A stretch of DNA of 64,000 bases from Heptranchias perlo (lineage: Eukaryota). The notes under the pieces were generated by a model, which saw nothing but the letters and a program-made list of their open reading frames with translations, was not told the DNA's origin and made no database searches. Made by a program: the position numbers and the translations under genes. Shown piece by piece: positions 633 to 52,092 of this stretch; the first letter of the stretch is position 1, and each line of letters begins with the position of its first letter. The DNA is taken from assembly GCF_035084215.1 (NCBI RefSeq), contig NC_090330.1:96906001-96970000 (forward strand), in the 5' to 3' direction.

Positions 633-821
633 CAACACCAGGTTATAGTCCAACAAATTTATTTTAAAATCACAAGCTTTCGGAGATTATCTCCTTCGTC
701 AGATGAAGGAGATAATCTCCGAAAGCTTGTGATTTTAAAATAAATTTGTTGGACTATAACCTGGTGTTGTAAGATTCCTTACATTTGTCCACCCCAGTCC
801 ATCACCGGCATCTCCACATCA
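633..821. mobile_element. Short palindromic Penelope-like insertion (copy 1)
   Basis: Inverted arms 632-697/705-770, sense tail 771-821 ending ccggcatctccacatca, TSD aagataatactca (620-632/822-834); homologous to the 3' end of the PLE at 42660-42784. Confidence 0.92.
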
Positions 822-1759
822 AAGATAATACTCAACAGCATTATTTACAAGGTGGATGGTCCAAGGATGTATGCCACAAAGTCTGACAACCTTTTCCACA
901 TTAATGCTAATCCAAGCCAAGCCCACACACAACCTCATTGTTTTCATGTTGCTTGCCATGTATACCCATATTCCAAATATTCAAGCTGGAACTTACAATT
1001 GAACTAGACTGACATCTTAAACAGGCTGAATGCATAAAATCATCATAACACCACCAAGCTGCATAATGCATGGTTACTTACTAACACTCAGGATGAGCTA
1101 CAAATTGCGCCAATATCTAGAAACTTGTATGTGTTCCTTCAATTTATAACGTGGCAGAACTACTTTTCTGCTTGTACAAAAAGATTGAGCATGAGCCCTG
1201 AAAGTACAAGGCACCTCTCACAGCGCAGATACTCTCTTGATGGAAGCACAAATTGGAGAAGTGGGCATCGAGGTCAGCACAATTGGCTGGAAAATTGAAT
1301 CAATCATTTTAATGCCAGCCAGAAAATACGCCTATAATGTCATCAGGACAAAAATGCCATATGGTTGTTCTGGGTCTCTTCCCTCCCAAACACAAAGTTT
1401 GCCAAACATTCTTTTGATGAAGACAATTTACTATTAAATATTATAAGCCAGATATTACTGGTGTGATAGTAGCAAATGAACATTTATTTTAATAGGATCA
1501 ATGTCACAATTAAAATAATGGGCATAGGAATGCAATAATTTCTATTCTTATATAAAAAGCTGTTTAGGAATGTGGTAACCCATTGTACCATCTACTGTAC
1601 AATTCCTAATGACTTTTTTTATGGTTCGCAAATTCTCATAAACAAGTATACCCAATATCAAAAACAATGAGTTGGGATAATATCAATTTGCAATAAAATA
1701 TTTACCAGAATCCAAACACTGGCTGGATATGCAATTTGTTGTTTAGCAAGTAGAATACA

Positions 1760-1960
1760 AAGGCTACCTTCATTTCCACAGATGACAACAATTTTGTGAA
1801 TCCATGGCTCAATCTTCCAACATGTGCCTTAGGCCTTTTAAGGCATTAGTGATGGGCTATCTTATCTCCAGCCACTCACTTCAAACTATCCAGAGATATT
1901 TGACAGTTTTTTTCTATTCTTTGTAATGCATTGTATGTGGGGGCTTTGACAACCATAATC
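1760..1960 (-). pseudogene. Highly decayed HARBI1-like transposase fragment
   Basis: Reverse strand gagtggctggagataagatagccc resembles the WLLGDKGYP motif; convergent with the Myb relic at 300-620. Confidence 0.3.
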
Positions 1961-2757
1961 CCCTATCTAGTTGAGAAATGTTCTCAATTAAACTATCAGG
2001 TTCATGCACCCTAAAAACATGTTTTTTTTATAAAGATGCTCTATCAGGCATTTTCTTTGAATTAGAAAGTATGGATAATGCCAGGGCAATTAGCAATAGT
2101 CAAATAGGTTATTTCCAGGTTTTAAACAGCTTAGCATGATTGATATCAGCTTACATTCAATTGAATGTTTTAAACCTTGTGATCTCACAGTGATAACCCA
2201 AAAATAGAAATAGCTGGTACTGCTCTTGATTTGCCACCCGCATAATGTTAATAGATGCAAAAAGTGCATTAATTAGGTCAAATTTGGGTCTTGAGTAAAT
2301 TTAATTAGCCAAATTTAGGTAATTTTGGAATTTCTCATCACTAGTGGATTATAACGTATCTGTGACCTTTTTATCAAGTGTATGTGCCCCTTTGTCTCAC
2401 ATATTTTCTGCTGAGCATCCTACTTAATTATTCATATGGTTAGGGTCTCCGACATGTCAATAGGTTTGGAATTTACTTTAATCCTCACTTGAAAAATTAG
2501 CTGAAGTACCAAAATGAATGATCCGTGATGCTGAATAAAGTGTTTGTGTGGGTGGCACTGAGTTCAAACACAGCTTGTTATTAGAATTTCAGTTACCTCT
2601 ACGTGGGTTGTGCAACACATTTCTCCCTACTGCACATTGTTTAGTCCCTTAGAGGCAGGGAAGACAGACTTGAAAAATGTTCTGGCCTTTGACTTACATT
2701 TCAAATCGCTTTTTCCTGGCAGCTTCAAATTAGACTTATTCTAGGCAAGAGCAGCAG

Positions 2758-2892
2758 AGGGGTAATTTTCCAACGCTGTACTGCTGGTGGGAACATGATT
2801 TTCCGACCATTGAAATTAATGGTTGGAAAATCATTTGCAATATGTGCTAACAGCAGGTGAGGCTGGCAGTGCAAAGTCAGAAAATTATCTCT
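2758..2892. mobile_element. Small MITE-like element
   Basis: Imperfect TIRs aggggtaattttc / gaaaattatctct, like other short TIR elements in the window. Confidence 0.45.
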
Positions 2893-4049
2893 TTAGATGC
2901 TTTAAGTAAAAAGACACAGCCAATCATGGCAGCTCGGTTTTATAACCTTTAATTATCTATTGATATGTAACTAAGTCAGGCCCTTGCTGAACCTGTCCTG
3001 TGGGAAAATAAATCCCTCTGATAACTCTGATGAACTCCTTCTATTAAGCAGGAACATTCCAGAACTGAAGGCAAATGTTTGCTTTAGAATAAAGAATAAG
3101 AGACACAAAATAAAACATAGCAAGTGTTGGAATAGGTTGGTCATTATACATAAAATATAACCCTACAAGCTTATTGCAACTAGGGTCAAAGCTTCAATTC
3201 TTGTTATCGATGTACTATCAGCAAAAAAATCTGCAAATTGTACTTTTGGAGATTTTAACCAAATGCCTATTGCATATAGGTATTTTTATCATCTCAGCTG
3301 CATTTGATGAATAGCCTGTATAAAAGATAGTTATCTGCATTTACATATGCAATCATGGCCCTAATAATTTGACTGTTCAAGGCCACAGCTATTCCATGGT
3401 TTGAAGATATCTCCTGGTGCAGTAAGCCAGTGGCAAGGATAGAATAGTGAATTGTCATCACAATTAATAATAATCTGTGTTATTATGGTGATGGCAATGA
3501 ATGTTCTAATTACTCCAAAGTGCATGCTTCAATAAACGTAATGTGAATTCCTACACGATAAAACAGGAATTTGTTTTCTGGTAGTAATTAAGCTTTGAAC
3601 CATAACAAAAGTTACAAAACTTTTTTCTTCACCACCAATTCTCTCCTGTAAACTGTAAGAAAAGTTTCCTTGTCTGCATTTTGTTCTGAAATGTGACTTC
3701 AAAGAATAAAATTATCAATTAATATTTAGAAGCAATTGTCAAGCTAGAACAAAATTTTAATATCCACCACACATTAATCTTTTATAGTATACAGAAGCTA
3801 TGAAATTCCTTTGACTCATTCAGTTGAATAAATTCCACTGCTCATCAAATTACAAAAAAAAATGGGAATCTGCTTCTGTCATTGCTGCCAAGACATCCCA
3901 GTTAACAAAATAAAAGAAAATCATAAATGGTAAACAATGTACATGTTGATGTTAAAAATTAATTGACTTTTGCTCTTTATAATTATGGGATTGTCTCAAT
4001 GCTTCCATGTGCTACTGCCTGTTAACAACAAGTATATTTCTAAAATGCA

Positions 4050-4560
4050 CTTCAGGCACATAGTGATATCTTGAAGTACTTCACAGGGAAGTGGACACTG
4101 ACCAAGAGGCAGAAAGGGAAGAAGACCTTTTGGATGCTTTTGAAAGCAGGGTGGGAGACCAGGAGGAGATGCAGAGGAAGAGAGTTCCAGAGGTTGGAAG
4201 CTTCATGGTTGGAAATGTGCATGCTGATGATGGAGCAGAGGGAGTGGGGAATGAGAAGTAAAAGCTTACCCCCAGTATCATTAGATAATATTGCTGAAGG
4301 GTAGCATGTTAAAGATGAAAAGCAAGAAGCTAAGATTGGAGCCATAGGCTATACCATAGGTAACTGGGTGGACTCGGGAGGATAATCTGTTAAAGGCAAT
4401 GAGTTTCTTCAAAGCGACAGCAAGAGTAGGACCATGAGAAAGCAGTATTGCATGGATGGACTGAGGAGGAGAGATGTTCAAGAGAGATTAAGTGATCACC
4501 ATTGCCAAAGACAGCAAAGAAGTCATGGATGACAAGGAATGACATTGAGCAGCAATAATA
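4050..4560 (-). mobile_element. Old L2 LINE fragment
   Basis: Purine-rich strand; minus translation (EASNLWNSLPLHL..FKSIQKVFF) resembles the L2 C-terminus at 9400-9550. Confidence 0.5.
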
Positions 4561-4874: not shown

Positions 4875-5136
4875 ACTAAATTATGAAGTATGGAAGCCCA
4901 CATTTATGGAACTGGATCAGAAATCCAGAAGGCATGAGTTCAAATCCCATTATGGCAAGTTACTAAATTTAATTTAATAAACCTGGTAATTTATGGCTAG
5001 CACCAAGAAATGACAAAAAAAGCAGCCAGATTGTTGTAAAAACCCAACTGGCTCACCAATGTCCTTCAGGGAAGGAAACCTATCACTCCTACCTGGTCTG
5101 GCATTACAAGTGACTCCACTCCCACACTATGTTGTT
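4875..5136 (+). mobile_element. tRNA-derived SINE, 5' part (split by LINE insertion)
   Basis: B-box gagttcaaatccc near 4936; core aaacccaactggctcaccaatgtccttcagggaaggaaac...gtgactcc; continues at 8312. Confidence 0.75.
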
Positions 5137-8100
5137 TTCTTTTATTCATTCATGAGATGTGGGCATCGCTGGCAAGGCCAGCATTTATTGCCCATCCTTA
5201 ATTGCCCTTGAGAAGGTGGTGGTGAGCAGCCTTCTTGAACCGCTGTAGTCCGTGTAGTGAAGGTTCTCCCACAGTGCTGTTAGGTAGGGAGTTCCAGGAT
5301 TTTGACCCAGCGACGATGAAGGAACGGCAATATATTTCCATGTCAGGACGGTGTGTGACTATCATTTTTATAACTGTCTAAATGCTTGCTATTTATATTG
5401 CTTGTGCAGGTTGTATGTGCTCCCATCTGCCTGCTGTCCTTGTCCCTCTAGGTGGTAGAGGTCGCAGGTTTAGGAGATGCTGGCGAAGAAGCCTTGGCGA
5501 GTTGCTGCAGTGGATCTTGTAGATGGTACACACTGTAGCCATGGTGCGCCAGTGGTGGAGGGAGTGAATGTTTAAGTTGGTAGATGGATTGCCAATCAAA
5601 TGGGCTGTTTTGTCCTGGATGGTGTCGAGCTTCTTGAGTGTTGTTGGAGCTGCACTCATCCAGGCAAGCGGAGAGTATTCCATTACACTCCTGACTTGTG
5701 CCTTGTAGATGGTGGAAAGGCTTTGGGGAGTCAGGAGGTGAGTCACTCGCCGCAGAATACCCAGCCTCTGACCTGCTCTTGTAGCCACAGTATTTACGTG
5801 GCTGGTCCAGTTAAGTTTCTGGTCAATGGTGACCCCCCAGAATTTACTTTCCACTTATCAGCCCAAGCCTGAATGTTGTCCAGGTCTTACTGCATGTGGG
5901 CATGGACTGCTTCATTATCTGAAGGGTTGCAAATAAAACTGAACACTGTGCAATCATCAGCAAACATCCCCACTTCTGTCTTATGATGGAAGGAAGGCCA
6001 TTAATGAAGGTGGTTAGGCCTAGGACACTGCCCTGAGGAACTCCTACAGAGATGTTCTGGGACTGAGATGATTGACCTCCAACAACCACTACCGTTTTCC
6101 TTTGTTCTAGGTATGACTCCAGCCATTGGAGAGTTTTCCCCGTGATTCCCATTGACTTCAATTTTTCTAGGGCTGGTGCCACACTCGGCCAAATGCTGCC
6201 TCGATGTCAAGGGCAGTTACTCTCACCTCACCTCTGGAATTCAGCTCTTTTGTCCATGTTTGGACCAAGGCGGTAATGAGGTCTGGAGCCGAGCAGTCCT
6301 GGCGGAACCCAAACTGAGCATCGGTGAGCAGGTTATTGGTGAGTAAGTGCCGCTTGATAGCACTGTCGATGACACCCTCCAACACTTTGCTGATGATTGA
6401 AGTAGGCTGATTGGTTGGTAATTGGTTGGATTGGATTTGTCCTGCTTTTTGTGGACAGGGCATGCCTGAGCAATTTTCCACTTTGTCGGGTAGATGCCAG
6501 TGTTGTAGCTGTACTGGAACAGCTTGGCTAGAGGCACGGCTAATTCTGGAGCACAAGCCTTCAGCACTACAGCCGGGATGTTGTCGGGGCCCATTGCCTT
6601 TGCAGTATCCAGTGCACTCAGCCATTTCTTGATATCAAGTGGAGTGAATCGAATTGGCTGAAGACTGGCTTCTGTGATGGTGGGAATCTCGGGAGGAGGT
6701 CGAGATGGATCATCCACTCGACACTTCCGGCTGAAGATGTTTGCAAATGCTTCAGACTTGTCTTTTGCACTCATGTGCTGAGCTCTGCCATCATTGAGCA
6801 TGGGAATGTTCACGGAACCTCCTCCTCCCATTTGTTTTTAATTGTCTACCACCATTCATGACTGGATGTGGCAGGACTGCAGAGCTTTGATCTGGTCCTT
6901 GGTTGTGGGATTGCTTTGCTCTGTTTGTAGCTTGCTGCTTCCGCTGTTTAGCATGCATGTAGACGTGTGTTGTAGCTTCACCAGGTTGGCATCTCATTTT
7001 TAGATACACCTGGTGCTGCTCCTGGCATGCTCTTCTACACACCTCATTGAACCAGGGTTGATTCCCTGGCTTGATGGTAATGGTAGAGTCAGGGATATGC
7101 CGGGCCATGAGTTTACAGATTGTGGTGCAATACAATTCTGCTGCTGCTGATGGCCCACCGAGCCTCATGGATCCCAGTTTTGAGCTGCTAGATCTGTTCT
7201 GAATCTAACCCATTTAGCACGGTGGCAGTGCCACACAACATGAAGGACGGTGTCCTAAGTGTGAAGACAGGACTTCGTCTCCGCAAGGAACGTGCGGTGG
7301 TCATTCCTCCCAACACTGTCATCAAATACATGACAGATACATCTGCGAGATTGATGAGGATGAGGTCAAGTTAGTTTTTCCCTCGTGTCGGTTCTCTCAC
7401 CATCTCCTGCAGGTCCAGTTTGGCAGCTATGTCCTTCAGGCCGCTGCCAGCTCGGTCAGTAATGATGCTACTGAGATAGTCTTGGTGATGGACATTGACT
7501 TCCCCCACCCAGAGTACATTCTGTGCTCTTGCTACCCTCAGTCCTGCCTCGAAGTGGTGCTCAACATAGAAGAGTACTAATTCATCAGCTGAGGGAGGGT
7601 GGTAGATGGTAACGACCTGGTGCCATGAGACTTCATGGGGTCCAGAGTCAATGTTTAGGACTCCCAGGGCCACTCCCTCCTGACTGTATACCACTGTGCT
7701 GCCACCTCTGGTGGGTCTGTCCTGCCGGTGGGACAGGACATATCCAGGGATGATGATGAATGAGTCTAGGATGTTGGCTGAAATATTCTGTGAGTATGGC
7801 TATGTCAGGCTGTTGCTTGACTAGTCTGTCGGACTTATTTTGGCACAAGTCCCAGTTGTTAGTGAGGGGGATTTGCAGTGTTGACTGGGCATGGTTTGCC
7901 TTTGTCGTGTTCAGTGCCTAGTGGTCCGATGCCGGGTGGTCCGTCCAGTTTTATTCTTATTACGACTTTTGTAGCAGGATTGTACAACTGAGTGGCTTGT
8001 TACGCCATTTCAGAGGGCAACTAAGAACCAACCACATTGCTGTAGGTCTGGAGTCACATATAGACCCAGACCGGGTAAGGACAGCAGGTTTCCTTCCCTA

Positions 8101-12225: not shown

Positions 12226-12631
12226 ATATTTTCAATATGAGAGAGGGATATCAGAGTCATGTATGGTCCGTGCGATTGTATCTGGTCTCTTCAAAAACAA
12301 GAATAATCACGGCAATTACCAAGACTAAGGCCAGCCGGATGAACTGTGATTGGTGGTCACAGGCTCTCTCAGTCACAACATATGCCCTGTAATTTTTGGT
12401 AATCTTAGTTGGGCCTGCAGACATATGATTTAGTCTGCCGCTAAGCTGCAGTCAGTTTCTTGGCACAAGGAGTATATGCTAAGACCCAGGAAACTACATT
12501 CCCAGTTACAACTTACAATAATTTACGAAGAAATGGCAAGGTAACAAGGTTGGTCCTGTGTATCTGATGGGAATGAAGTTGTATAGGTTACAAAGTGCCT
12601 CTGCACCAACAGATCAGCCTTAACATATTGT

Positions 12632-12866
12632 AAACAATTTTACAACACCAAGTTATAGTCCAGCAATTTTATTTTAAATTCACAAGCTTTCGGAGGCTTC
12701 CTCCTTCGTCAGGTGAACGATGTGAAAATGAAATTCTCGAAATGAAATCGCATTTATAATTCAGAAGGAAAGCTTGTGAATTTAAAATAAAATTGCTGGA
12801 CTATAACTCGGTGTTGTAAAATTGTTTACAATTGTCAACCCCAGTCCATCACCGGCATCTCCACAT
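12632..12866. mobile_element. Short inverted Penelope-like insertion (copy 2)
   Basis: Antisense arm 12627-12763, sense arm from 12768 plus tail; TSD cttaacatattgt 12619-12631/12867-12879. Confidence 0.92.
12678..12717 (-). ncRNA. Minimal type I hammerhead ribozyme motif
   Basis: Minus strand ttcac-CTGACGA-a-ggagg-aag-cctcc-GAAA-gc-tt-gtgaa: Watson-Crick stem I (ttcac/gtgaa), stem II, self-complementary AGCU stem III, CUU cleavage triplet. Confidence 0.8.
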
Positions 12867-13355
12867 CTTAACATATTGTGACAGAGGTGACCAGCAGATC
12901 CCTGGTATTTCTTATGTCCATTTTCTATATTGTTGTGTAATAATTATAAGTTATGATCTTTTACCACCAATAAATATGCTTTTTATTTGGAATCTGAGTT
13001 CTTAAGGTAAATGTATTGCACTATAGTTCATTCAGGTATATGAATATTACTAACAGTAACATATAGTATAGAAACATGACTGCTATTGATATCTGATTTC
13101 TTGAGATTATTTATTAATATTTATGGCTTTTTAATTATCAAAATGCGAATCTGCTTTTTGTCTATATTTAGATGAACACAATAATGCTTCAATTATAGAG
13201 GCTGGAACGAATAAACACATTTATTTGATCCAAATACTGTTGTAGCTTTAGAAATGCAGTGATAATTCAACAACTGCCACTAGGTCATGTACAATTGAAT
13301 TTCATGGAACTTAATCTCTGTCTCAGCTGTGTAAATGTTGAAATACTCTTGCAAT

Positions 13356-13436: not shown

Positions 13437-14755
13437 TATTTCAGAGGAAACGTTCTAGTCCTCCATAAATCACAATATTGGTAGTGCACTTATGAAATTT
13501 AAGCAATTTCATGAAACACTTCAGGTGAAATTTTGCTGATAATAAATCATTATTGCTTGGTGTGTAAACAGTTTCATTCACATCAGCTGTTATTGTGATG
13601 GACCACTCTGCTATTAGTTCACAGAGATCTCTATAATAACTTCAGATTTTTATATCTTGTATTAGAAAAGGGTAATTGTTCTCAAATCATTGATGCCTTC
13701 AGTCCTATCATTCAATTTGAATTCCCTGATTTGTCGTCTGGTTTTAAATCTCAGCCTATCTATCCTCAGGAGATAATTGGGAACATTTGCATCAAATATT
13801 ACGATGGGTTCATTTGCATTTATATTGATTAAAATAAATCTTTACATATTTTCATTTAACACAGACATTTTATTTTCCATTCATCCATTCACACAGGGTT
13901 TAACAAATGATTTGTTATTCTGATTAAATACCTTTCCTTGTAGAGAGAGAGTAGAATATTACAGACAAAGAACCAGGACATTTTGGTGGCGAGAACGGCT
14001 ATGGGATCAATAATGATTAAACCACTGCGCTGCCCAATTTCTAAAGTCCCTAAAAAGCCCATGAAAACCCATAATTTTCAGACCATGCACTAATGACTCT
14101 CTTAGAATCCCTTGAATTTCAAGCATAGATAATTGAAATTCATTCTGACTTCACGTGGGAGCCAGTAAATTACCTCCGCTGCGTTATTGCATCATTTACT
14201 GACTTTGAATAGTTTCCAGGATTGTGCGAAAAAAGAGCTGCTTAATGCTTTTTAATATTTGTATCAGTACAAATGAAATGGAATGAAAAAGCCCTGATGA
14301 GATGAAAATAATTTTGTTTTGTAGCCATTCATTTACATCAGTGGGAAGTAGTCTTTGATGACCAATGTCAGTGTGCATTAAAACAGAAACTGTCAACAAT
14401 ACAAAGTCCCTATACAAATAGTACAATAAAACACAATCTCTATAATAGGGGAGCTAAACTTTCCATTTTACCACTCGAGGATGTTGATTGTAGAGCTTTA
14501 TTTTACTATAAGGTAAGCTATTACGCAGATGAAGAAATTATACTGACGCATCAATAACGCTCTCAATCTTTCTCTTTCACCATCACAACAACACAATTTT
14601 AATCACTTCTTCAACCTTTGGTCAACGTTGCTATAAACCTCTACTGCAGTTAATATTTGTTTCAAGAGAAAACACAAGCCTTGAAATTACACTGTGGGAT
14701 AATGTTGTATGAACTCCTAATACTTTGTTCATATTCGTTCCTCTACGATTTTAAT

Positions 14756-15010
14756 TGTAAACAATTTTACAACACCAAGTTAGAGTCCAGCAATTTTATT
14801 TTAAATTCACAAGCTTTCGGAGGCTACCTCCTTCCTCAGGTGAACGATGTGGAAATGAAATCCTCGAAATGAAGTCGCATTTATAATTCACAGAACAATG
14901 CTTGGTGAGTACAGACAGTTTTTTCAACTGCCCGTTGCCAAGGCAATCAGTGTGCAGACAGACAGGTGTTACCTGCCAGGTCTCACAGAATATACACATA
15001 ATCGCCACAT
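14756..15010 (-). mobile_element. Penelope-like insertion (copy 3): long antisense arm plus a few nt of sense tail
   Basis: Antisense 3'UTR 14753-~14998 (caactgcccgttgccaaggcaatc matches 39168-39191), then atcgccacat (tail end is atctccacat); TSD tacgattttaat 14744-14755/15011-15022. Confidence 0.88.
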
Positions 15011-15419
15011 TACGATTTTAATGACAGTGTTGAAATGTTTAAAGTAAAAGGGTATTATCTCCACTGAACTGAAAGATAAAGGATTTTCAGGTTAACTCAC
15101 TAAATATTTGCAAACTATTATACCCCAGCATAATTTCAAGACCATTTTTTTTTCATTCGACAACTATCATGAACTAGGAATTGAACCTACGTTTTCTGAA
15201 TATGTGCCAGCAGTGAATAACCTGTTGTCAACAAGTCATTTGCCACCAGCACATGTCGAAAATCAGCGGGCATCATGCCCTCGATTTTCCCATAATCCCT
15301 GTAGGCAGGCAAAGTTACTCACCTCTGGTGTACACTCAGGAAATTTGCCAAATATTCTCTGATTTCGTGCTATTTTCAGATTCTACTGTCAATATGAATA
15401 CTAGAAATTGATAATAAAA

Positions 15420-15570: not shown

Positions 15571-15574
15571 AATA

Positions 15575-16971: not shown

Positions 16972-18037
16972 TGGCTGGAGTCATACCTAGCACAAAGGAA
17001 GATGGTAGTGTTTGTTGGAGGTCAATCATCTCAGCCCCAGGACATTGCTGCAGGAGTTCCTCAGGGCAGTGTCCTAGGCCCAGCCATCTTCAGCTGCTTC
17101 ATCAATGACCTTCCCTCCATCATAAGGTCAGAAATGGGGATGTTCACTGATGATTGCACAGTGTACAGTTCCATTCGCAACCCCTCAGATAATGAAGCAG
17201 TTCGTGCCCGCATGCAGCAAGACCTGGACAACATCCAGGTTTGGGCTGATAAGTGGCAAGTAACATTTGCGCCAGACAAGTGCCAGGCAATGACCATCTC
17301 CAACAAGAGAGAGTTTAACCACCTCCCCTTGTCATTCAACGGCATTACCATCGCCGAATCCCCCACCATCAACATCCTGGGGGTCACCTTTGACCAGAAA
17401 CTGAACTGGACCAGCCATATAAATACTGTGGCTACAAGAGCAGGTCAGAGGCTGGGTATTCTGTGGCGAGTGACTCACCTCCTGACTCCCCAAAGCCTTT
17501 CCACTATCTACAAGGCACAAGTCAGGAGTGTGATGGAATACTCTCCACTTGTCTGGATGAGTGCTGCTCCAACAACACTCAAGAAGCTCGACATCATCCA
17601 GGACAAAGCAGCCCGCTTGATTGGCACCCGATCCACCACCCTAAACATTCACTCCCTTCACCACTGGTGCACAGTGGCTGCAGTGTGTACCATCCACAGG
17701 ATGCTCTGCAGCAACTTGCCAAGGCTTCTTCGACAGCACCTCCCAAACCTGCGACCTCTACCACCTAAAAGGACAAGGGCAGCAGGCACACAGGAACAAC
17801 ACCACCTGCATGTTCCCCTCCAAGTCACACACCATCCCGACTTGGAAATATATCGCCGTTCCTTCATCGTCGCTGGGTCAAAATCCTGGAACTCCCTTCC
17901 TAACAGCACTGTGGGAGAACCTTCACCACACGGACTGCAGCGGGGGCTCACTACCACCTTCTCAAGGGCAATTAGGGATGGGCAATAAATGCTGGCCTCG
18001 CCAGCGATGCCCACATCCCATGAACGAATAAAAAAAA
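16972..18037 (+). mobile_element. 5'-truncated CR1-group LINE (same family as 5137-8311)
   Basis: ORF 17002-17988 GVPQGSVLGP, MFTDD, LGVTFDQKLNWTSH; tail gggcaataaatgctggcc..gaacgaataaaaaaaa. Confidence 0.92.
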
Positions 18038-18078
18038 TGATTCTCGGTTATGGGCTCTCTCAATGACTTAACAATTTT

Positions 18079-18280
18079 AAACAATTTTACAACACCAAGT
18101 TATAGTCCAGCAATTTTATTTTAAATTCACAAGCTTTCGGAGGCTACCTCCTTCCTCAGGTGAAGGAAGGAGGTAGCCTCCGAAAGCTTGTGAATTTAAA
18201 ATAAAATTGCTGGACTATAACTTGGTGTTGTAAAATTGTTTACAATTGTCAACCCCAGTCCATCACCGGCATCTCCACAT
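18079..18280. mobile_element. Short palindromic Penelope-like insertion (copy 4)
   Basis: Arms 18078-18156/18164-18242, tail to 18280, TSD cttaacaatttt 18067-18078/18281-18292. Confidence 0.93.
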
Positions 18281-19199
18281 CTTAACAATTTTGCACAGTG
18301 AGTGGCTAAGCCACACAAACCAGGAAGGTCAAAGGTTTGATTACCTGATTGCTGACTTAATTGATCTCAGCCTGGGTGCTACAATTGGCTTGGGCCAAGG
18401 AGGCGGAAAACAAACCAGAGTTCCTGCTTTTAATTACTGGTGGAAATGTGGATGTTGGATTAGGACAAGATTGGGCTTGGCTTCAATGCCTCTAATGGTT
18501 TGATACCCTACTGAAATTCACTGTCAATGAATAAACGGCATTTAGGCAAGGTACTGGCGGGTGACTGAGGCTCGAGAAATTATGCTGCAACAGGAAATTA
18601 ATGCCTTCTGGAGAAGAGAAGGGAAGAAAACTGACTAGAAGGAAAAATAAAATTATTGCAGCGCCATACATTACTAGTTGTTATGTCATTGCAACTGGAT
18701 ATAAAATAAAATGAGTTAACTATATATATTATCGAGGAGCCTTTTATAATAAAATCCAATTTGTTACAAAAAAGCTTACCATATCAGTAACAGTAGTTTG
18801 CTTTATGAGTGTAACTGTCAGACAGTTTGATATACTGGAGAAAGCAGCTAGTTCATTGCAGGAAATAGTCAGCTCACTTGTTGCTTTCTTAATGCCAATT
18901 CATTGATAGGTTGAAAGACTCCCTAATTTAAAGGGTGTGCTTTTCTTTCTGTGTTGACTTGTGAATCTGACTGTGTCGTTTAAAACAAAGGCAACCTGAG
19001 GTTTGAATTGCATGGCCTTGAAATTCGAGCATGCAGGGAGCAATCCCCGCGCCTCAGTAGATAGACCCGAGGTGCGTGTGATATTCGGACCCTCAGGGTC
19101 AGAGGATCCAAGCACTGATGCAATATTGCTTGCCAACACTGTGTCTGCCATTATTGAGATTTTGGACTCCAATGTATAGGAGGCTTTCACTTCTGTACT

Positions 19200-28244: not shown

Positions 28245-29110
28245 AAAAATTCATTCATGGGATGTGGGCGTCGCTGGCAAGGCCAGCATTTATTGCCCAT
28301 CCCTAATTGCCCTTGAGAAGGTGGTGGTGAGCCACCTTCTTAAACCGCTGTAGTCCGTGTGGTGAAGGTTCTCCCACAGTACTGTTAGGTAGAGAGTTCC
28401 AGGATTTTGACTCAGCGACGATGAAGGAACGGCGATATATTTCCAAGTCAGGATGGTGTGTGACTTGGAGGGGAACGTGCAGGTGGTGCCTTGCTGCTGC
28501 CCTTGTCCTTCTAGGTGGTAGAGGTCACGGGTTTTGGAGGTGCTGTCGAAGAAGCCTTGGCGAGTTGTTGCAGTGCATCTTGTAGATGGTACACACTGCA
28601 GCCACGGTGCACCGGTGGTGGAGGGAGTGAATGTTTAAGGTGGTGGATTGGGCGCCAATCAAGTGAGCTGCTTTGTCTTGAATGGTGTCAAGCATCTTGA
28701 GTGTTGTTGGAGCTGCACTCATCCAGGCAAGTGGAGAGTATTCCATCACACTCCTGACTTGTGCCTTGCAGATGGTGGAAAGGCTTTGGGGAGTCAGGAG
28801 GTGAGTCACTCACTGCAGAATACCCAGCCTTTGAACTGCTCTTGAAGCCACAGTATTTATATGGCTGGTCCAGTTAAGTTTCTGGTCAATGGTGACCCCC
28901 AGGATGTTGATGGTGGGGGATTCGGCGATGGTAATGCTGTTGAATGTCAAGGGGAGGTGGTTAGAATATCTCTTATTGGAGATGGTCATTGCCTGGCACT
29001 TGTCCGGAGCGAATGTTTTTTGCCATTTATCAGCCTAAGCCTGGATGTTGTCCAGGTCGTGCTGCATGAAGGCACAGACTGCTTCATTATCTGAGGAATT
29101 GCGAATGGAA
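28245..29110 (-). mobile_element. 5'-truncated CR1-group LINE (same family as 5137-8311)
   Basis: ORF 28525-28809 THLLTPQSLSTI.KAQVRSVMEYSPLAWMSAAP and the same 3' tail. Confidence 0.9.
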
Positions 29111-29676
29111 CAGATATTTAAAGAGTATTTGCTTTTTGTGGGCCCCAGATACTTTCCAAGAGTTGCAAAATATACCAATAGAATATAACATTTTTGACTT
29201 GAAAAAAGGAATTTATTTTTGATTTCAAAACATGGAAACAGTGTAAAGCATAATTTTTAAATTCTTATTGAGCTTTTAATAATAAAAACAATACATATAC
29301 TGGAGCGAAGGGTGGGGGGAAGCACAAGTAATTGGGAGATGAATGGGAGGCAGCAGTAACTGATAGAGAGGGTGTGAATGAAGCCACTGAGGGCCACATT
29401 TTTCCAGCAATGCAGCTTACAGCCATTGGCGGCCCCGTTCCCTCCCTGCCACACCCTGCCATATCACCCACCAGCTCCCACCTGAAAGAACAAATTAAAA
29501 ACTTAAGTTAAAATAAATATTTTACAATTACAAGCTTAAATTTATTAACTGAATTCTTTTTTATATGCTTGGCCATGTTTATTAATGTTTTTGATAGGAG
29601 ACAAGTTTGAATGTCAGAAGCCTATAAGTATAAATTGTTTTTTTTCCCCTGTGTTGCACTTTTTCCCTTTGGCCCA

Positions 29677-38950: not shown

Positions 38951-39055
38951 AAGCCACTAACGGAGATTAGAAAAACAGAGATCCAATTATTGCCACGTGA
39001 AGAATTCAACTCCATGCCTACTCATTGTGTTATAGTCCAGCAATTTTATTTTAAA

Positions 39056-39094
39056 TTCACAAGCTTTCGGAGATTTCCTCCTTCCTCAGGCAAA
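39056..39094 (-). ncRNA. Minimal hammerhead ribozyme motif (left arm)
   Basis: Mirror copy of 42658-42696. Confidence 0.75.
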
Positions 39095-39338
39095 TGTTTC
39101 AAGAGCTCCTTGAAGCCTACGCATTTATACATATAGAACAATACATGGTGTTTACAGACTGCCCCTGCAACTGCCCGTTGCCAAGGCAATCACCGTGTTC
39201 AGACAGAGAGGTGTCACCTGCAGAACCCCCGAATACACATTCAACAAAAAAACAAACAGGGAAAAAAAACAGAGAAAAAAAACAGAGAGAGGCAGAAACA
39301 TCCGGAAGGCAGAGAGAGCCAGCAAATGACCCATTATA

Positions 39339-40739
39339 TTAAAAACAGATAACATTTGTTCGCTGGTGGGGTAACGTGTAGCGTGACATGAACCCAAGAT
39401 CCCGGTTGAGGCCGTCCTCATGGGTGCGGAACTTGGCTATCAATTTCTGCTCGACGATTTTGCGTTGTCGTGTGTCTCGAAGGCCGCCTTGGAGTACGCT
39501 TACCCGAAGGTCGGTGGATGAATGTCCATGACTGCTGAAGTGTTCCCCGACTGGGAGGGAACCCTCCTGTTTGGTGATTGTTGCGCGGTGTCCGTTCATC
39601 CGTTGTCGCAGCGTCTGCATGGTCTCGCCAATGTACCATGCTCTGGGGCATCCTTTCCTGCAACGTATGAGGTAGACAACGTTGGCCGAGTCACAGGAGT
39701 ATGAACCATGCACCTGGTGGGTGGTGTCCTCTCGTGTGATGGTGGTATCTGTGTCGATGATCTGGCATGTCTTGCAGAGGTTACCGTGGCAGGGTTGTGT
39801 GGCGTCGTGGACGCTGTTCTCTTGAAAGCTAGGTAGTTTGCTGCGAACGATGGTCTGTTTGAGGTTGGGTGGCTGTTTAAAGGCGAGTAGTGGAGGTGTG
39901 GGGATGGCCATAGCGAGGTGTTTGTCCTCATTGATGACATGTTGAAGGCTGCGGAGAACATGGCGTAGTTTCTCCGCTCCGGGGAAGTACTGGACGACAA
40001 AGGGTACTCTGTTGGTTGCGTCCCGTGTTAGTCTCCTGAGGAGGTCTATGCGATTTTTTGCTGTGGCCCGTCGGAACTGTCGATCGATGAGTCGAGCGTC
40101 ATATCCCGTTCTTACTAGGGCGTCTTTCAGCGTCTGTAGGTGTCCATCGCGTTCCTCCTCGTCTGAGCAGACCCTGTGTATTCGCAGGGCCTGTCCATAG
40201 GGGATGGCCTCTTTGACGTGGTTAGGGTGGAAGCTGGAAAAGTGGAGCATCGTGAGGTTGTCCGTGGGCTTGCGGTAGAGTGAGGTGCTGAGGTGCCCGT
40301 CTTTGATGGAGATTCGTGTGTCCAAGAAAGAAACTGATTCTGAGGAGTAGTCCATGGTGAGCTTGATGGTGGGATGGAACTTGTTGATGTTATCGTGTAG
40401 TCTCTTTAGTGATTCCTTGCCGTGGGTCCATAGAAAGAAAATGTCGTCGATGTATCTGGTGTATAGTGTTGGTTGGAGGTCTTGTGCAGTGAAGAAGTCC
40501 TGCTCGAACTTGTGCATGAAAATGTTGGCGTATTGGGGTGCGAATTTGGTCCCCATGGCTGTTCCGTGTGTTTGGGTAAAGAACTGGTTATCGAAGGTGA
40601 AGACATTGTGATCCAGGATGAAGCGGATGAGTTGTAGGATGGCTTCCGGAGATTGGCTGTTGTTGGTGTTGAGTATTGATGCTGTCGCAGCGATGCCGTC
40701 ATCGTGGGGGATACTGGTGTATAGTGCCGAGACGTCCAT
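39339..40739 (-). CDS. PLE reverse transcriptase + GIY-YIG endonuclease, 5'-truncated (frame open upstream to ~40886)
   Basis: MDVSALYTSIPH, GTAMGTKFAPQYANIFM, YTRYIDDIF, SFLD, Cys linker PCHGNLCKTC, NVVYLIRC..WYIGET..RMNGH..EHF..GLN; no stops. Confidence 0.93.
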   Translation of the reverse strand: MDVSALYTSIPHDDGIAATASILNTNNSQSPEAILQLIRFILDHNVFTFDNQFFTQTHGTAMGTKFAPQYANIFMHKFEQDFFTAQDLQPTLYTRYIDDIFFLWTHGKESLKRLHDNINKFHPTIKLTMDYSSESVSFLDTRISIKDGHLSTSLYRKPTDNLTMLHFSSFHPNHVKEAIPYGQALRIHRVCSDEEERDGHLQTLKDALVRTGYDARLIDRQFRRATAKNRIDLLRRLTRDATNRVPFVVQYFPGAEKLRHVLRSLQHVINEDKHLAMAIPTPPLLAFKQPPNLKQTIVRSKLPSFQENSVHDATQPCHGNLCKTCQIIDTDTTITREDTTHQVHGSYSCDSANVVYLIRCRKGCPRAWYIGETMQTLRQRMNGHRATITKQEGSLPVGEHFSSHGHSSTDLRVSVLQGGLRDTRQRKIVEQKLIAKFRTHEDGLNRDLGFMSRYTLPHQRTNVICF

Positions 40740-41012
40740 CGTGGTGAGAAGTGTTCCTGGTTCAACTGGTCCGTGGGTACTGAGTTTTTGTAGGAAGTCT
40801 GTAGTGTCGCGACAGAAGCTGGGGGTTCCCTGTACGATGGGTTTCAGGATGCCCTCGATGTATCCAGAGAGGTTCTCACACAGGGTTCAGGCATCGAGGG
40901 CATCCTGAAACCCATCGTACAGGGAACCCCCAGCTTCTGTCGCGACACTACAGACTTCCTACAAAAACTCAGTACCCACGGACCAGTTGAACCAGGAACA
41001 CTTCTCACCACG

Positions 41013-42413
41013 ATGGACGTCTCGGCACTATACACCAGTATCCCCCACGATGACGGCATCGCTGCGACAGCATCAATACTCAACACCAACAACAGCCAAT
41101 CTCCGGAAGCCATCCTACAACTCATCCGCTTCATCCTGGATCACAATGTCTTCACCTTCGATAACCAGTTCTTTACCCAAACACACGGAACAGCCATGGG
41201 GACCAAATTCGCACCCCAATACGCCAACATTTTCATGCACAAGTTCGAGCAGGACTTCTTCACTGCACAAGACCTCCAACCAACACTATACACCAGATAC
41301 ATCGACGACATTTTCTTTCTATGGACCCACGGCAAGGAATCACTAAAGAGACTACACGATAACATCAACAAGTTCCATCCCACCATCAAGCTCACCATGG
41401 ACTACTCCTCAGAATCAGTTTCTTTCTTGGACACACGAATCTCCATCAAAGACGGGCACCTCAGCACCTCACTCTACCGCAAGCCCACGGACAACCTCAC
41501 GATGCTCCACTTTTCCAGCTTCCACCCTAACCACGTCAAAGAGGCCATCCCCTATGGACAGGCCCTGCGAATACACAGGGTCTGCTCAGACGAGGAGGAA
41601 CGCGATGGACACCTACAGACGCTGAAAGACGCCCTAGTAAGAACGGGATATGACGCTCGACTCATCGATCGACAGTTCCGACGGGCCACAGCAAAAAATC
41701 GCATAGACCTCCTCAGGAGACTAACACGGGACGCAACCAACAGAGTACCCTTTGTCGTCCAGTACTTCCCCGGAGCGGAGAAACTACGCCATGTTCTCCG
41801 CAGCCTTCAACATGTCATCAATGAGGACAAACACCTCGCTATGGCCATCCCCACACCTCCACTACTCGCCTTTAAACAGCCACCCAACCTCAAACAGACC
41901 ATCGTTCGCAGCAAACTACCTAGCTTTCAAGAGAACAGCGTCCACGACGCCACACAACCCTGCCACGGTAACCTCTGCAAGACATGCCAGATCATCGACA
42001 CAGATACCACCATCACACGAGAGGACACCACCCACCAGGTGCATGGTTCATACTCCTGTGACTCGGCCAACGTTGTCTACCTCATACGTTGCAGGAAAGG
42101 ATGCCCCAGAGCATGGTACATTGGCGAGACCATGCAGACGCTGCGACAACGGATGAATGGACACCGCGCAACAATCACCAAACAGGAGGGTTCCCTCCCA
42201 GTCGGGGAACACTTCAGCAGTCATGGACATTCATCCACCGACCTTCGGGTAAGCGTACTCCAAGGCGGCCTTCGAGACACACGACAACGCAAAATCGTCG
42301 AGCAGAAATTGATAGCCAAGTTCCACACCCATGAGGACGGCCTCAACCGGGATCTTGGGTTCATGTCACGCTACACGTTACCCCACCAGCGAACAAATGT
42401 TATCTGTTTTTAA
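41013..42413 (+). CDS. PLE reverse transcriptase + GIY-YIG endonuclease, 5'-truncated
   Basis: 466 aa, identical to the left copy except R>H (KFRTH/KFHTH). Confidence 0.93.
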   Translation: MDVSALYTSIPHDDGIAATASILNTNNSQSPEAILQLIRFILDHNVFTFDNQFFTQTHGTAMGTKFAPQYANIFMHKFEQDFFTAQDLQPTLYTRYIDDIFFLWTHGKESLKRLHDNINKFHPTIKLTMDYSSESVSFLDTRISIKDGHLSTSLYRKPTDNLTMLHFSSFHPNHVKEAIPYGQALRIHRVCSDEEERDGHLQTLKDALVRTGYDARLIDRQFRRATAKNRIDLLRRLTRDATNRVPFVVQYFPGAEKLRHVLRSLQHVINEDKHLAMAIPTPPLLAFKQPPNLKQTIVRSKLPSFQENSVHDATQPCHGNLCKTCQIIDTDTTITREDTTHQVHGSYSCDSANVVYLIRCRKGCPRAWYIGETMQTLRQRMNGHRATITKQEGSLPVGEHFSSHGHSSTDLRVSVLQGGLRDTRQRKIVEQKLIAKFHTHEDGLNRDLGFMSRYTLPHQRTNVICF

Positions 42414-42657
42414 TATAATGGGTCATTTGCTGGCTCTCTCTGCCTTCCGGATGTTTCTGCCTCTCTCTGTTTTTTTTCTCTGTTTTTTTTCCCTGTTTGT
42501 TTTTTTGTTGAATGTGTATTCGGGGGTTCTGCAGGTGACACCTCTCTGTCTGAACACGGTGATTGCCTTGGCAACGGGCAGTTGCAGGGGCAGTCTGTAA
42601 ACACCATGTATTGTTCTATATGTATAAATGCGTAGGCTTCAAGGAGCTCTTGAAACA

Positions 42658-42696
42658 TTTGCCTGAGGAAGGAGGAAATCTCCGAAAGCTTGTGAA
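42658..42696 (+). ncRNA. Minimal hammerhead ribozyme motif (right arm)
   Basis: tttgc-CTGAGGA-a-ggag-gaaat-ctcc-GAAA-gc-tt-gtgaa; predicted cleavage after 42691. Confidence 0.75.
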
Positions 42697-42822
42697 TTTA
42701 AAATAAAATTGCTGGACTATAACTTGGTGTTGTAAAATTGTTTACAATTGTCAACCCCAGTCCATCACCGGCATCTCCACATCATACTCATTGTGTGGCA
42801 TTGTACCTCGAATGAATATATT

Positions 42823-44823
42823 GGGCTCGATATTAGCACCCGCTATCGGGTGCGTTCCTGGCGGGGGGGCTCCGAAAATCGGCGATTCCCGGGGCGGGTC
42901 CGGAGCCAGGCTCCAACCCGCCCACTTCTGGGTTTCCCACGGACGCGCTGACATGCGCGCGCAGCCCCCGCATGTGGAACTCCCGCCGGCAATTAAAGCC
43001 AGCGGGATGCCACTTAAAGTATTTATTTAGGTATTTCAGGCCGTTTACAGACCTGATTAAGGAGACTGTTTCCCATACTGGGGCAAACACTCCGAGTTAA
43101 AATGGACGTGTTGCAGCCATCAGCCTGTGGCAGCTGCAAAGGTCCATTTGACAGGTGGTGGGGGGAGACCCTCACTCATTGCAGGAGGCCACTCTGTCAC
43201 TTTGGACAAAGTTTGGCCTCCACCACCCTCCTCCTGACAATCAAATTCACAAACTTGCACACTTTCCCCGGTGTCCAGACACATGTACCTACCTTGCGGA
43301 CCCCCTCAGATGTACATCTTCCGGATGAGGGCCGCCGTAGCTGCAGTCATGACCTCCTCGGAGGGCGAACAGCATCACCAGCCTCGCCGGCCATGCCGTC
43401 CACCTCTGACACATGGAGCTCCACAACACAGTGCTGTGACACATCCACCTGCACAGCAGGTGGGAGGGCAATAGCAGAGAGAGATGCGTCACAGAGGGCA
43501 CTACCCTCGCCACAGGGTCCACAGACCGAGGCTCAGCTTCCTGGACCTCTCTGAGCAGCAGTGCACACGGAGGCTCAGAGTCACTCGACATGTAGTCGTG
43601 GACATCTGCAGCCTCCTTCATGCCGAGCTGCTCCCGGCTGGCCCGAGCACCATCTTCTTACCTGTCGCTGTCAAAGTCACCACTGCCCTCAACAACTTCT
43701 CCTCCGCATCCTTCCAGGGTGCCACCGGGGACATCGCCGACGTCTCTCAGTCGTCTGCACAAAAGAGCCCTGCAAATACACCTACACCCACTCTGCAGTG
43801 ACACAATGGGTGGCATCAGGTGTGGGTCTTCATTGTGATCCTCAGGAAAGGACATTGTTGCACAAACCAGACAAGATTCGCAAAGACATGGCAGTAGTGG
43901 TGCCAATATAATATGTGATGTGAGTTGGTCAGAAATTAAATATAAGTAAAAACCATGACAAACCCTCAAACGCCCTTGTGCATCCCCTTCATGCTCATGA
44001 CACGTTTGTCTTACGCTGCCTACTGCACATATGCGATGCATGCCCTGTGGCTGCAGCACAGGTAGTGGCAGGTTGAGTGAGGCTGACCGTGAAAGAGCTG
44101 CATGAGAGGGTGAGTATGAGATAGAGCCATGAGATTGTATGAGGATTGGGTTGAGTGGTAGTGGTGGGATGAGTACTGGCGAGGTGAGTAAGTGCAGGTA
44201 AGATGAGGATGAGGTTTGAGTGGGTGTGAGGGGTGATGTGACAGAGTAGTGTTGGCAGTGCAGAAGGAGATGTGGGGTGGGGGCGGTGATGTGGCAGACG
44301 GAGTGTAGGGGAATGAGTAAGTGTACTCACTTTGGCTGACCTACTTAGGTCATTGCAGGTGGGCGATATGTTGGTGGTGCAGGTGACCTCCTCTGCCACC
44401 TCGAGCCAGGCCTTCTTGGTGGCAGAGGCAGGCCGCTTCCTTCCGCTCGCCGAGGGGAAAGATCTCTGTCCTCCCCCTCCTCCTCACCCCATCCAATGAT
44501 ACCTGGAGTGAGGCATCATTAAACCTGGGAGCAGCCTTCCCCCTGGGCTGCTCCATGCTGTAACTTTTCCTATTTCTTACAGCATCAGTCAGTGGAGGAC
44601 TGCCCCTTTAAATAGAGCTCCTCCAGCTGACAGACCTTACTGCACATGCCCAGTCCGCCCGACGCGCAGCTCAGCAGTGGGGAACCCGGAACAACAGGTA
44701 AGTGGATCCAATCAGCCTGCGATTGCGTTCGGGGCAGACTGATTTCACCGGGCGCGTTACCCACGCGCCCAATCGCCGCGCCCCCTCCCGCCGCGAACCC
44801 GTTGCCCAGGTAATATCAAGCCC
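42823..44823. mobile_element. Internally deleted Harbinger transposon
   Basis: TIRs gggctcgatatta / taatatcaagccc, TSD att/att; HARBI1 N-terminus on + (43484: RPRLSFLDLSEQQCTRRLR..LPVAVKVTTALNNFSSASFQGATGDIADVSQSS); Myb exon on - (44556: MEQPRGKAAPRFNDASL..KKAWLEVAEEV..CNDL). Confidence 0.9.
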
Positions 44824-47948: not shown

Positions 47949-48030
47949 CATAGGAACATAGGAATTGCTAGATGAAAAAAGACCAAGGTCCATCTAATTC
48001 GCCTTCTACCATCCTGGTAGTCACATGATA
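47949..48030 (-). mobile_element. CR1-like 3' tail
   Basis: Reverse strand gatggaccttggtcttttttcatctagcaattcctatgttcctatg. Confidence 0.6.
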
Positions 48031-50644: not shown

Positions 50645-51090
50645 ACACTTGTATTTATATCGCACTTTTCACAGTTTCAGGATGTTCCAAAGAGCTTTAC
50701 AACCAATGAAGTACTTTTGAAATGTAGTCACTGTTGCAGTGTAGGAAACACAGCTGCCAATTTGCTGCAAGGTCCCACAAACAGCAAGGTGATTATGACC
50801 AGATAATCTGTTTTTAGCAGTTGGTTGAGGGTTAAATATTGGCCAGGATAACGGGGAGAACTCCCCTGCTCTTCTTCGAAATAGTGTCATGGGATCTTTT
50901 ACGTCCATCTGAGGGGGTAGGTGGGGCCTCAGTTTAAGATCTCATCTGAAAGACGGCAACTCCAAGAGTGCAGCACTCCCTCAGTACTGCAGTGCAGTTT
51001 CAGCCTAGATTCAGTGCTCAAAGCCCTAGAGTGGGACTTGAATACAACTTTCTGACTCAGAGGCAATATTGCTACCGCTGAGCCATGGCT
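50645..51090 (-). mobile_element. Deu-domain tRNA SINE
   Basis: Reverse complement of the 31225-31650 family; head tggctcagcggtagc..gagtcagaaagttgtattcaagtccc. Confidence 0.85.
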
Positions 51091-51900
51091 GACATCAATG
51101 GACAGGAAAATCAGGCGGGGTGAATAATGGGTGGCTAATTCAATAACACCAGATTTACACCCATGGCCCAAAGTTAAAATTGCCCCTAGTGAGTTTAACA
51201 CATGGTGAAGGTTAAAACAAGAAATCACACAAAGCATTTGTATTTGTAATAAAGAATTAAAACTGGTTTCAAGGCTGCAAAAAAAACTCAATGGATTTAG
51301 ATTACATTATAACCGATGAGTGAGAAGCTCAAAGGGTCAAAGAACTGTGTAGATGAATTATTTGTGGGCAGGGGACTGATGATGTAATGGACGTTAAGAC
51401 AATATCACTATGCAACAGAGGTATAATAAAATCAGGGACCATTGGGAAAGTGACTGGTGCGGGCAAACTGAAAATGAAAAATGGAATGTATGAAAAGAAG
51501 AAAAATATTATGAGACCACAGAGAATTAAAATGGGGGAGCAATAAAAGTACCAGAAAAAGCACAGATCTGAAAATAAAGGGCTTTAAAGGCAAATGGGTA
51601 CATGGGAGGAAGGGGCAGAGAGAAAGACATATAAAAGAGCACTAAACAAAACCAAGGTGCAGATGCAAATAGGAGAAGAAAAATAATTGATTGATGTAGT
51701 TGGGAGTGAATAAATAAGGGCAGCAGAGTTGTGTCAAAAAGCGGAGAATAGCAACTTAGACTATAAGACAGAACCCAGCAACGTGAGTGGCAATTTGGTG
51801 AGAGGTCAGAGGCACAGAACTCAAGATCAAAAAGGCAAGCAAGAAAATACCCAAAAATAGAGTGAGAAGAACCCTGGAAATTAAGAACTTCAATCAAGAG

Positions 51901-52092
51901 TAAGGAGTCTTACAACATCAGGTTATAGTCCAACAGCTTTATTTAAAATCACAAGCTTTCGGAGGCTACCTCCTTCGTCAGGTGAGGAGGTAGCCTCCGA
52001 AAGCTTGTGATTTTAAATAAAGCTGTCGGACCATAACCTGGTGTTGTAAGACTCCTTACATTTGTCCACCCCAGTCCATCACCGGCATCTCC
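51901..52092. mobile_element. Short palindromic Penelope-like insertion (copy 5)
   Basis: Arms 51900-51974/51985-52059, tail, TSD acttcaatcaagag 51887-51900/52093-52106. Confidence 0.92.

Follow-up and report, generated by a model that had tools for sequence, protein, structure and literature searches.

The window analysed here is a stretch of 64,000 nucleotides from Heptranchias perlo (NC_090330.1, positions 96,906,001 to 96,970,000 of the forward strand), and this report concerns six insertions of a Penelope-like element (PLE) in it and the way in which such head-to-head copies are made. Comparison of the window with itself and inspection of the insertion ends showed that each of the six is bounded by exact direct repeats, the target-site duplications (TSDs), of 13, 13, 12, 12, 12 and 14 bp, which confirms the 12-14 bp given in an earlier note on this DNA. 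The inserts of copies 1-6 measure 189, 235, 255, 202, 3,754 and 192 bp, in agreement with the size range of about 190 bp to 3.7 kb reported there. Positions in the element are counted from the A of the ATG of its open reading frame (ORF), which is 0, with negative numbers upstream. The antisense arm is called tail-less and the sense arm, which runs to the tail, is called tailed. The features in the window are as follows.

620-632, + strand: copy 1, left TSD, 13 bp (right TSD at 822-834)
633-704, - strand: copy 1, tail-less arm, element about -52 to -123, the 7-nt centre included
705-821, + strand: copy 1, tailed arm, element -116 to 0
12619-12631, + strand: copy 2, left TSD, 13 bp (right TSD at 12867-12879)
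12632-12767, - strand: copy 2, tail-less arm from -41, which templates 72 of the 76 central nt
12768-12866, + strand: copy 2, tailed arm, element -100 to -2
14744-14755, + strand: copy 3, left TSD, 12 bp (right TSD at 15011-15022)
14756-14999, - strand: copy 3, a lone tail-less arm that begins at -38 and shares 98% identity over 230 nt with the arm of another copy
15005-15010, + strand: copy 3, tail-like 6-nt stub after 5 unassigned nt, too short for proof
18067-18078, + strand: copy 4, left TSD, 12 bp (right TSD at 18281-18292)
18079-18163, - strand: copy 4, tail-less arm from -41, the 7-nt centre included
18164-18280, + strand: copy 4, tailed arm, element -118 to -2
39019-39030, + strand: copy 5, left TSD, 12 bp (right TSD at 42785-42796)
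39031-40891, - strand: copy 5, tail-less arm from -63, with a 5'-truncated frame for reverse transcriptase (RT) and GIY-YIG endonuclease at 39339-40886
40892-42784, + strand: copy 5, tailed arm, with the 5'-truncated RT and GIY-YIG frame to 42413, then the pseudo-long terminal repeat (pseudo-LTR) and the tail
42747-42784, + strand: copy 5, tail, about 37 nt between the two putative priming sites, its last nt being the A of the next unit's ATG
51887-51900, + strand: copy 6, left TSD, 14 bp as the maximal match (right TSD at 52093-52106)
51901-51984, - strand: copy 6, tail-less arm from -40, the 10-nt centre included
51985-52092, + strand: copy 6, tailed arm, element -113 to -6

The left arm is antisense in all six insertions and lacks the last 52, 39, about 36, 39, 63 and 34 nt of the element (copies 1-6). 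In all five two-arm copies it extends further 5' than the sense arm, and it templates the central spacers of 7, 76, 7, 31 and 10 nt (copies 1, 2, 4, 5 and 6; 28 of the 31 central nt in copy 5). The earlier note had ascribed one layout to all six, namely TSD, antisense arm, sense part, tail and TSD; this was found in the five two-arm copies, but the insertion at 14756 has no sense arm and ends in the 6-nt stub ccacat, and it is essentially a single tail-less arm. The copy placed at 39029 begins at 39031, with 2 nt common to the TSD and the element, and its tailed arm is 99% identical to an intact tandem unit of the family. The last 5 nt of the left TSD of copy 2 are the element sequence at the priming site. 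The tail side is on the right in all six, as had been noted; however, the 24-nt tail motif has 50,817 exact matches in the 3.25-Gb genome, 25,187 on the + and 25,630 on the - strand, so the right-hand tails in the window are a matter of chance. The six insertions belong to a Neptune-type Penelope-like family of more than 50,000 copies, of which they are inert, ordinary members.

A single ORF of 902 aa was found in three tandem loci. Its product matches Pfam RVT_1 (E = 3e-10) and contains the motifs DKG, DVSALY, GTAMG and RYIDD. The Pfam search of this protein gave no GIY-YIG match, and PF01541 is present on many homologues. By motif, a C-terminal GIY-YIG region was found (VVYLIRC at 790, YIGET at 805, RMNGH at 816, EQ at 866 and GLN at 879). 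It has two cysteines between its GIY and YIG parts, and the residues R, H, E and N are present as well; these residues and the CX2-5CxxC motif of the linker between RT and endonuclease are defined in the available text of PMC8557442. The linker motif is present as CHGNLCKTC at 753, and the label Neptune-type rests on it, the predicted clade being Neptune or Nematis; its presence does not fit the Penelope/Poseidon clade, which lacks it. The closest named relatives are shark proteins with 80-94% identity, and a PDB search with the family protein found no close structure. Tandem units of 3,081-3,083 bp form the pseudo-LTRs in L091, L092 and L093. The arrays L091/L232, L092 and L093 hold at least three full 3.08-kb units each, 99.97-100% identical within an array and with intact ORFs, and are very young read-through insertions; the L093 array has a tail-less end, at -37, inside a minisatellite. 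In the tandem unit the ORF's ATG marks where the tail stops, so the tail is not the RNA's 3' terminus and both priming sites are internal. The earlier idea that one target end primes at the RNA 3' end was therefore wrong.

To describe the family beyond the window we used a sample of 146 tail-anchored copies together with 49 arms of the tail-less and 13 of the tailed kind for which the pseudo-LTR core served as anchor. The tail-anchored copies are the first 30 genome matches plus matches thinned by three arbitrary flank letters, with 7 kb of upstream DNA for 60, 9 kb for 20 and 1.5 kb for the rest, and nearly all sampled copies lie on contigs C1-C3; single-arm, complex and leftover classes were sorted by eye. 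The results showed that 99 of the 146 tail-anchored copies are two-arm insertions bounded by TSDs, 9 have an inverted arm without a clean TSD or are complex, and 15 consist of a tailed arm alone between TSDs. The 49 tail-less-anchored copies comprise 34 with two arms and 9 with the tail-less arm alone between TSDs. The two-arm layout is the majority product but not the sole one. Outer ends and polarity were counted on 139 non-redundant TSD-bounded two-arm copies (the duplicate loci L163, L164, L165 and L173 were left out, L105 was replaced by L231, L063 and L167 were counted once, as were L088 and L087, and L118 stood outside the site-distance count). Among them 94 are at most 330 bp long, and 136 have overlapping arms, the exceptions being L027, L032 and L045. 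Reversed-pattern controls gave 0 matches in every genome search, so the layout is far beyond chance.

The outer ends of these copies are fixed. Of the 139 copies, 61 have a TSD of 12 bp and 121 one of 11-14 bp. The start of the tail-less arm falls within -36 to -40 for 106 of 136 copies and the end of the tail within -3 to +2 for 113 of 139, and the two ends lie 33-40 nt apart in 102 of 135. Genome-wide patterns for mini-palindromes matched 5,929 copies with one tail-less and one tailed end (one subfamily group) versus 52 with two tails (all groups), so that the absence of the tail from the antisense arm, noted in the window, is true for about 99% of mini-palindromes. When 50 two-tailed loci were examined, 14 continued into the ORF, 6 mirrored host DNA, and few were clean and TSD-bounded. 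The pattern with two tail-less ends had 438 matches, mostly in a subfamily with a variant tail; among the 50 such loci listed, 7 lie outside that subfamily and 2 of these 7 are TSD-bounded. Palindromes that are tail-less at both ends are about as rare as two-tailed ones. At L256, L284, L288, L293, L301 and L302, and at the tail-less L312, mirror symmetry runs 38-544 nt beyond the tail motif into host DNA; these palindromes carry no TSD, and inverted flank duplication is a signature of fold-back or hairpin repair.

The target is also constrained. In 57 non-redundant 12-bp sites the base profile correlated with its own reverse complement at r = 0.82, whereas 2,000 column shuffles reached at most 0.51. 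The preferences are C at -1 (63%) and G at +1 (73%), followed by T at -4 and by C at both -5 and -7, each matched by its mirror image, and the motif is two-fold symmetric around the 12 bp. Microhomology between target and element averaged 1.44 nt at the tail-less end versus 0.58 nt after permutation (n = 57), and 1.06 versus 0.51 nt at the tail end (n = 49); none of 5,000 permutations reached the observed value at either end, and 1-3 nt is typical of both target junctions. Empty paralogous sites, that is host-repeat copies with one copy of the TSD and no insert, were found for 49 of 145 insertions, so the TSDs bound single events, as the earlier note had supposed. Independent insertions were seen at the same two sites of multi-copy host repeats (L014, L042, L065, L074, L212, L215 and L223; L031, L032, L142 and L143), whose sequence fits the symmetric motif, although the flank-letter filters may have enriched such cases. 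New copies also lie at one common position in the pseudo-LTR core of older copies of the other subfamily (L280, L298, L309, L325, L327 and L334), which suggests that a target site lies within the pseudo-LTR of the element itself.

At the centre the arms differ in length in both directions. Automatic scoring gave 64 copies with the tail-less arm longer, 54 with the tail arm longer and 21 undecided; mapping of the 39 copies with a centre of at least 100 nt or without overlap then moved L004, L029, L079, L130 and L204 to the first class and L008 and L036 to the undecided. The final counts are 69, 47 and 23 (binomial p = 0.051), and among the 61 copies whose arms differ by at least 20 nt they are 37 and 24. 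With the tail arm longer in 47 of 116 decided copies, the rule that the antisense arm always reaches further 5' does not hold, and the argument drawn from a tail arm always shorter at the centre fails with it. The clean centres show 0-4 nt of microhomology in 56 of 60 cases. Short template jumps or repeated restarts were seen at the junctions of L045, L162, L125, L057 and L180; L045 has 42 nt of the ORF start ahead of a 30-nt tail.

The pseudo-LTR carries two further motifs, given here as they lie in copy 5.

42623-42628, + strand: TATA box of the pseudo-LTR (-161), a putative promoter element by sequence
42658-42696, + strand: candidate minimal type I hammerhead motif by sequence, with CUGANGA, stem II, GAAA and a palindromic stem III

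A TATA-like box lies at -154 to -169, depending on the subfamily, with transcription predicted to start about 30 nt downstream. The hammerhead motif, compared with those of PMC4209133, lies at about -126 to -88 with a predicted cut near -93; its core motif and stem II were recognised in all subfamilies, and an Rfam search gave no hammerhead match. There are 87 short copies with an end close to the hammerhead, and in 45 of them this end lies 28-33 nt past the TATA box. Their end shifts with the TATA spacing across subfamilies (Spearman 0.37, p = 4e-4), and single arms, tailed and tail-less, end at the same TATA-linked position. The short-copy ends are likely run-off from the RNA 5' end, that is from the predicted transcription start. 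An extra G as a cap signature was looked for by eye at the 5' ends of single-arm copies, and none was seen. The hammerhead cut was considered as the palindrome centre and rejected; the centres are found 30-45 nt upstream of where the cut is predicted, and their position is therefore not set by self-cleavage.

In 26 of 31 long copies the arms resemble one another more than either resembles any further copy. Diverged arms were considered as a mark of two templates and rejected: most of the differences are of the CpG or private kind, with an even split (122 CpG, 122 and 130 private, 65 shared). They look like later mutation, with one template as a rule. Patterns that combine arms of two subfamilies matched 7 + 15 times genome-wide, for which the 1,859 rows of the B/B pattern, whose tails were not filtered out, are a rough denominator only. 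Adjacent TSDs of 11-13 bp were found at L318, L320, L322 and L324, and at the two-tailed L276. In L318, L320, L322 and L276 the arms are 10-12 mismatches apart in 75 nt, each arm being 0-2 mismatches from a copy of the same subfamily, while the arms of 108 ordinary copies are at most 5 mismatches apart in 70 nt. Such chimeras are beyond the reach of a cDNA that folds back on itself; gene conversion could make them.

The layout itself is known. In the available text, Arkhipova 2013 (PMC3846280) describes an inverted pseudo-LTR, an optional tail and a TSD as the typical Penelope structure and proposes self-priming, and Craig 2021 (PMC8557442) reports the same inverted layout and ascribes the tail to endonuclease resolution. 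As far as these accounts and PMC2377424 were accessible, endonuclease-bearing PLEs share with this family the head-to-head 5'-truncated copy, the 30-40-nt tail at one end, the TSD, the tandem pseudo-LTRs, and the TATA-like box in the pseudo-LTR, together with a hammerhead that in this family is a candidate by motif; unlike the present analysis, their available portions give no genome-scale polarity counts, symmetric target motif or junction microhomology. From the accessible sections of Frangieh 2024 (PMC11167929), PAc (Poseidon, Anolis carolinensis) cleaves and extends both target strands in vitro, two internal RT start sites bound the tail, binding occurs near the ORF start, and a dimer is predicted; those sections do not derive the inverted arm from two-ended priming. 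PAc, of the Penelope/Poseidon clade, starts 111-118 nt into the ORF according to the same excerpts, whereas the present family, of another clade that is Neptune-type by motif, starts near -38 and 0.

Taken together, we consider it likely, with a probability of about 70%, that the head-to-head copies are made by two-site twin priming on the sense RNA of the element. A protein dimer, suggested by the target symmetry and by the published prediction for the related element, would cut both strands 12 nt apart and leave 3' overhangs. Each 3' end would pair by 1-3 nt with the sense RNA, one per start site, and both ends would usually be primed on the same RNA molecule. The two cDNAs would stop independently, the tail-less one going further somewhat more often (either arm may be the longer one, and either may be absent altogether), and their 3' ends would be joined head to head via 0-4 nt of microhomology. 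Protein bound at the site copy near the transcript's 5' end would let both cDNAs run off where transcription starts, about 30 nt beyond the TATA box, giving the dominant 190-250-bp palindromes, and protein bound at the downstream site copy would give kilobase arms and tandem read-through. The proposal of the earlier note that both target ends are primed on the element RNA at two sites is supported by the published biochemistry on a related element (PMC11167929), the fixed starts, the microhomology, the single arms and the chimeras, but not in its absolute rule for the arms.

Several observations weigh against this reading. No copy shows an intermediate, and all steps are deduced from end products, that is from fixed sites, a symmetric target, microhomology, independent arm lengths and both kinds of single arm. 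Within the DNA fetched, no empty paralogue was found for any of the six window copies. In the sample, no class was assigned to 23 of the 146 copies anchored on the tail and to 6 of the 49 anchored on the tail-less arm. The TATA correlation is modest, the spread of the ends about the TATA box (SD, standard deviation, 6.7) is close to that about the hammerhead (7.0), and the choice of reference for this measure is partly circular. There are few chimeras, and they could have arisen by ectopic gene conversion in one of the arms. Palindrome centres can also change after insertion: among decided copies, the tail-less arm exceeds the tail arm in 31 of the 43 whose arms are identical versus 35 of the 70 whose arms have diverged (Fisher p = 0.03), so centre statistics partly reflect age; the lean in identical-arm copies may be a real bias blurred by later deletions. 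In the available text of PMC11167929, the PAc start site is the same on both strands and has no homology to the cut DNA, whereas this family has one start site per end in about 99% of mini-palindromes and 1-3 nt of microhomology, a polarity that those excerpts do not show reproduced in PAc in vitro. Finally, 44 of 60 clean centres also fit fold-back with a stem of at least 1 bp.

The likeliest alternative, although itself unlikely, is remodelling after insertion, in which near-perfect palindromes are altered by asymmetric central deletion and gene conversion. These would produce the spacers, their direction and the chimeras, and the centre would then be a poor guide to priming; this alternative is compatible with twin priming. 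Palindromes are generally unstable, the polarity approaches 50:50 as arm divergence rises, and L004, L029, L130 and L008 have one-arm internal deletions or central insertions. However, the median spacer is nearly constant across arm divergence (11, 15.5 and 16 nt), and the very young copies L161, L158, L115 and L056 already have spacers of 275-1,799 nt. The evidence from the outer ends (fixed sites, microhomology and symmetric target) is independent of the centre.

Somewhat less probable still is snap-back self-priming, in which a single cDNA turns back to serve as its own template and resolution by the endonuclease leaves the tail on one side, as proposed for an antisense template in the accessible text of Arkhipova 2013 (PMC3846280) and, for the tail, in that of Craig 2021 (PMC8557442). 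It agrees with the near-identical arms, which almost always come from one template, with the 44 centres that permit a stem, and with the existence of fold-back-like products, since 6 of 50 two-tailed palindromes mirror 38-544 nt of host DNA. Yet these apparent fold-back cases have a tail at both ends and an inverted flank, features not seen in ordinary copies, and 16 of 60 clean centres allow no templated stem with a loop of at least 3 nt; loop-free perfect palindromes are not a product of this route. A single such route would fix which arm is longer, but both polarities occur (69:47), and it yields neither TSD-bounded single arms of both types, nor microhomology at both target junctions, nor arms from two subfamilies. 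That ends fall close to where sense transcription is predicted to begin speaks for a sense template. A mixed form could also operate, in which both ends are primed and the longer cDNA then folds back until it meets the shorter.

The weakest alternative is a strict trailing-RT model, two RTs on one RNA with the tail-primed one trailing and not able to overtake, so that the tail-less arm always goes further and exceptions are later damage: it fits all five two-arm window copies, the 31:12 lean of identical-arm copies and the lower divergence of long tail-less-longer copies (median 0.9% versus 2.2%, p = 0.03), but it is improbable and, as an absolute rule, contradicted by clear and young exceptions, namely L158 (a tail arm that is longer by 848 nt, with 2 substitutions over 2,206 nt) and L017, L043 and L135 (identical arms, the tail arm longer by 52-129 nt), and by 15 tail-only copies with intact TSDs, 7 of which reach -123 to -131.

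Other elements lie in the window beside the six insertions. Fragments of LINE-type elements (LINE, long interspersed nuclear element) were found at 5136-7799 (-), 16972-18029 (+), 28249-29114 and 57615-58458 (+), with Pfam RVT_1 at 16972 and 57615 and a weak endonuclease match at 7374; copy 4 stands about 40 nt behind the element at 16972. Decayed ORFs at 59284-62212 and 43658-44483 gave no Pfam match. Among them, the ORF at 61697-62212 (-), which likewise has no Pfam match, resembles what we take from its motifs to be a Harbinger-type transposase, with partners that are presumably Myb/SANT-like.

In L1 twin priming, as described in the accessible part of PMC9148063, the other end of the target is primed at an internal point of the element RNA, which produces an inverted, head-to-head copy flanked by TSDs. 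As in L1, the second end in the present family would pair internally with the RNA, to judge from the microhomology at the tail-less end (1.44 versus 0.58 nt). In L1 one end primes on the poly(A) and the internal site is variable, whereas this family has no poly(A) and both sites are fixed and internal. The inverted and direct segments of L1 are mostly non-overlapping, and inversions are a minority of insertions; unlike L1, this family copies the same sequence twice (136 of 139 copies overlap), and two-arm copies are the majority. As far as the available text goes, the hammerheads of PLEs (PMC4209133) and of animal non-LTR retrozymes (10.64898/2026.07.22.740005) are minimal type I with a palindromic stem III in each pseudo-LTR, which the candidate motif here resembles. 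Short tandem arrays of retrozyme-like form also occur in this family: L100:1357-5183 (G000:C2:21272857-21276683) holds about 9.5 near-identical 404-bp tandem units spanning the element from -276 to +127, hammerhead motif included, with a 12-13-bp direct repeat at both sides and the tail at its end. This single event resembles either the copying of a small circular RNA by a rolling circle or a series of template jumps. Unlike retrozymes, the window copies are palindromes and not tandem arrays, with their centres upstream of the predicted cut.

The layout and the extension of both strands are thus already published, and the mechanism in the earlier note was largely right in outline and largely anticipated; of the two arguments given for it, one is wrong. 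Our literature search, outside which subscription literature could hold some, found no report that ties the inverted arm to two-ended priming, and none of a symmetric target, polarity counts or TATA-linked run-off. For the inverted one-tailed insertions of PLEs, antisense self-priming and endonuclease resolution have been proposed. The value added here is genome-scale evidence that makes the twin-priming model testable, in a family where intact 902-aa copies exist, the symmetric target motif is defined, both start sites are mapped and end products number in the tens of thousands. The chances seem to us even that programmed twin priming is the normal route for endonuclease-bearing PLEs in general, in which a dimer on a symmetric site would hold the RNA asymmetrically with start sites 37 nt apart, no separate second-strand step would be needed at the ends, and most copies would be run-off products. 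If true, it would replace the model of antisense self-priming and would jointly explain the inverted arms, the one-sided tail and the hammerhead-centred mini-palindromes.

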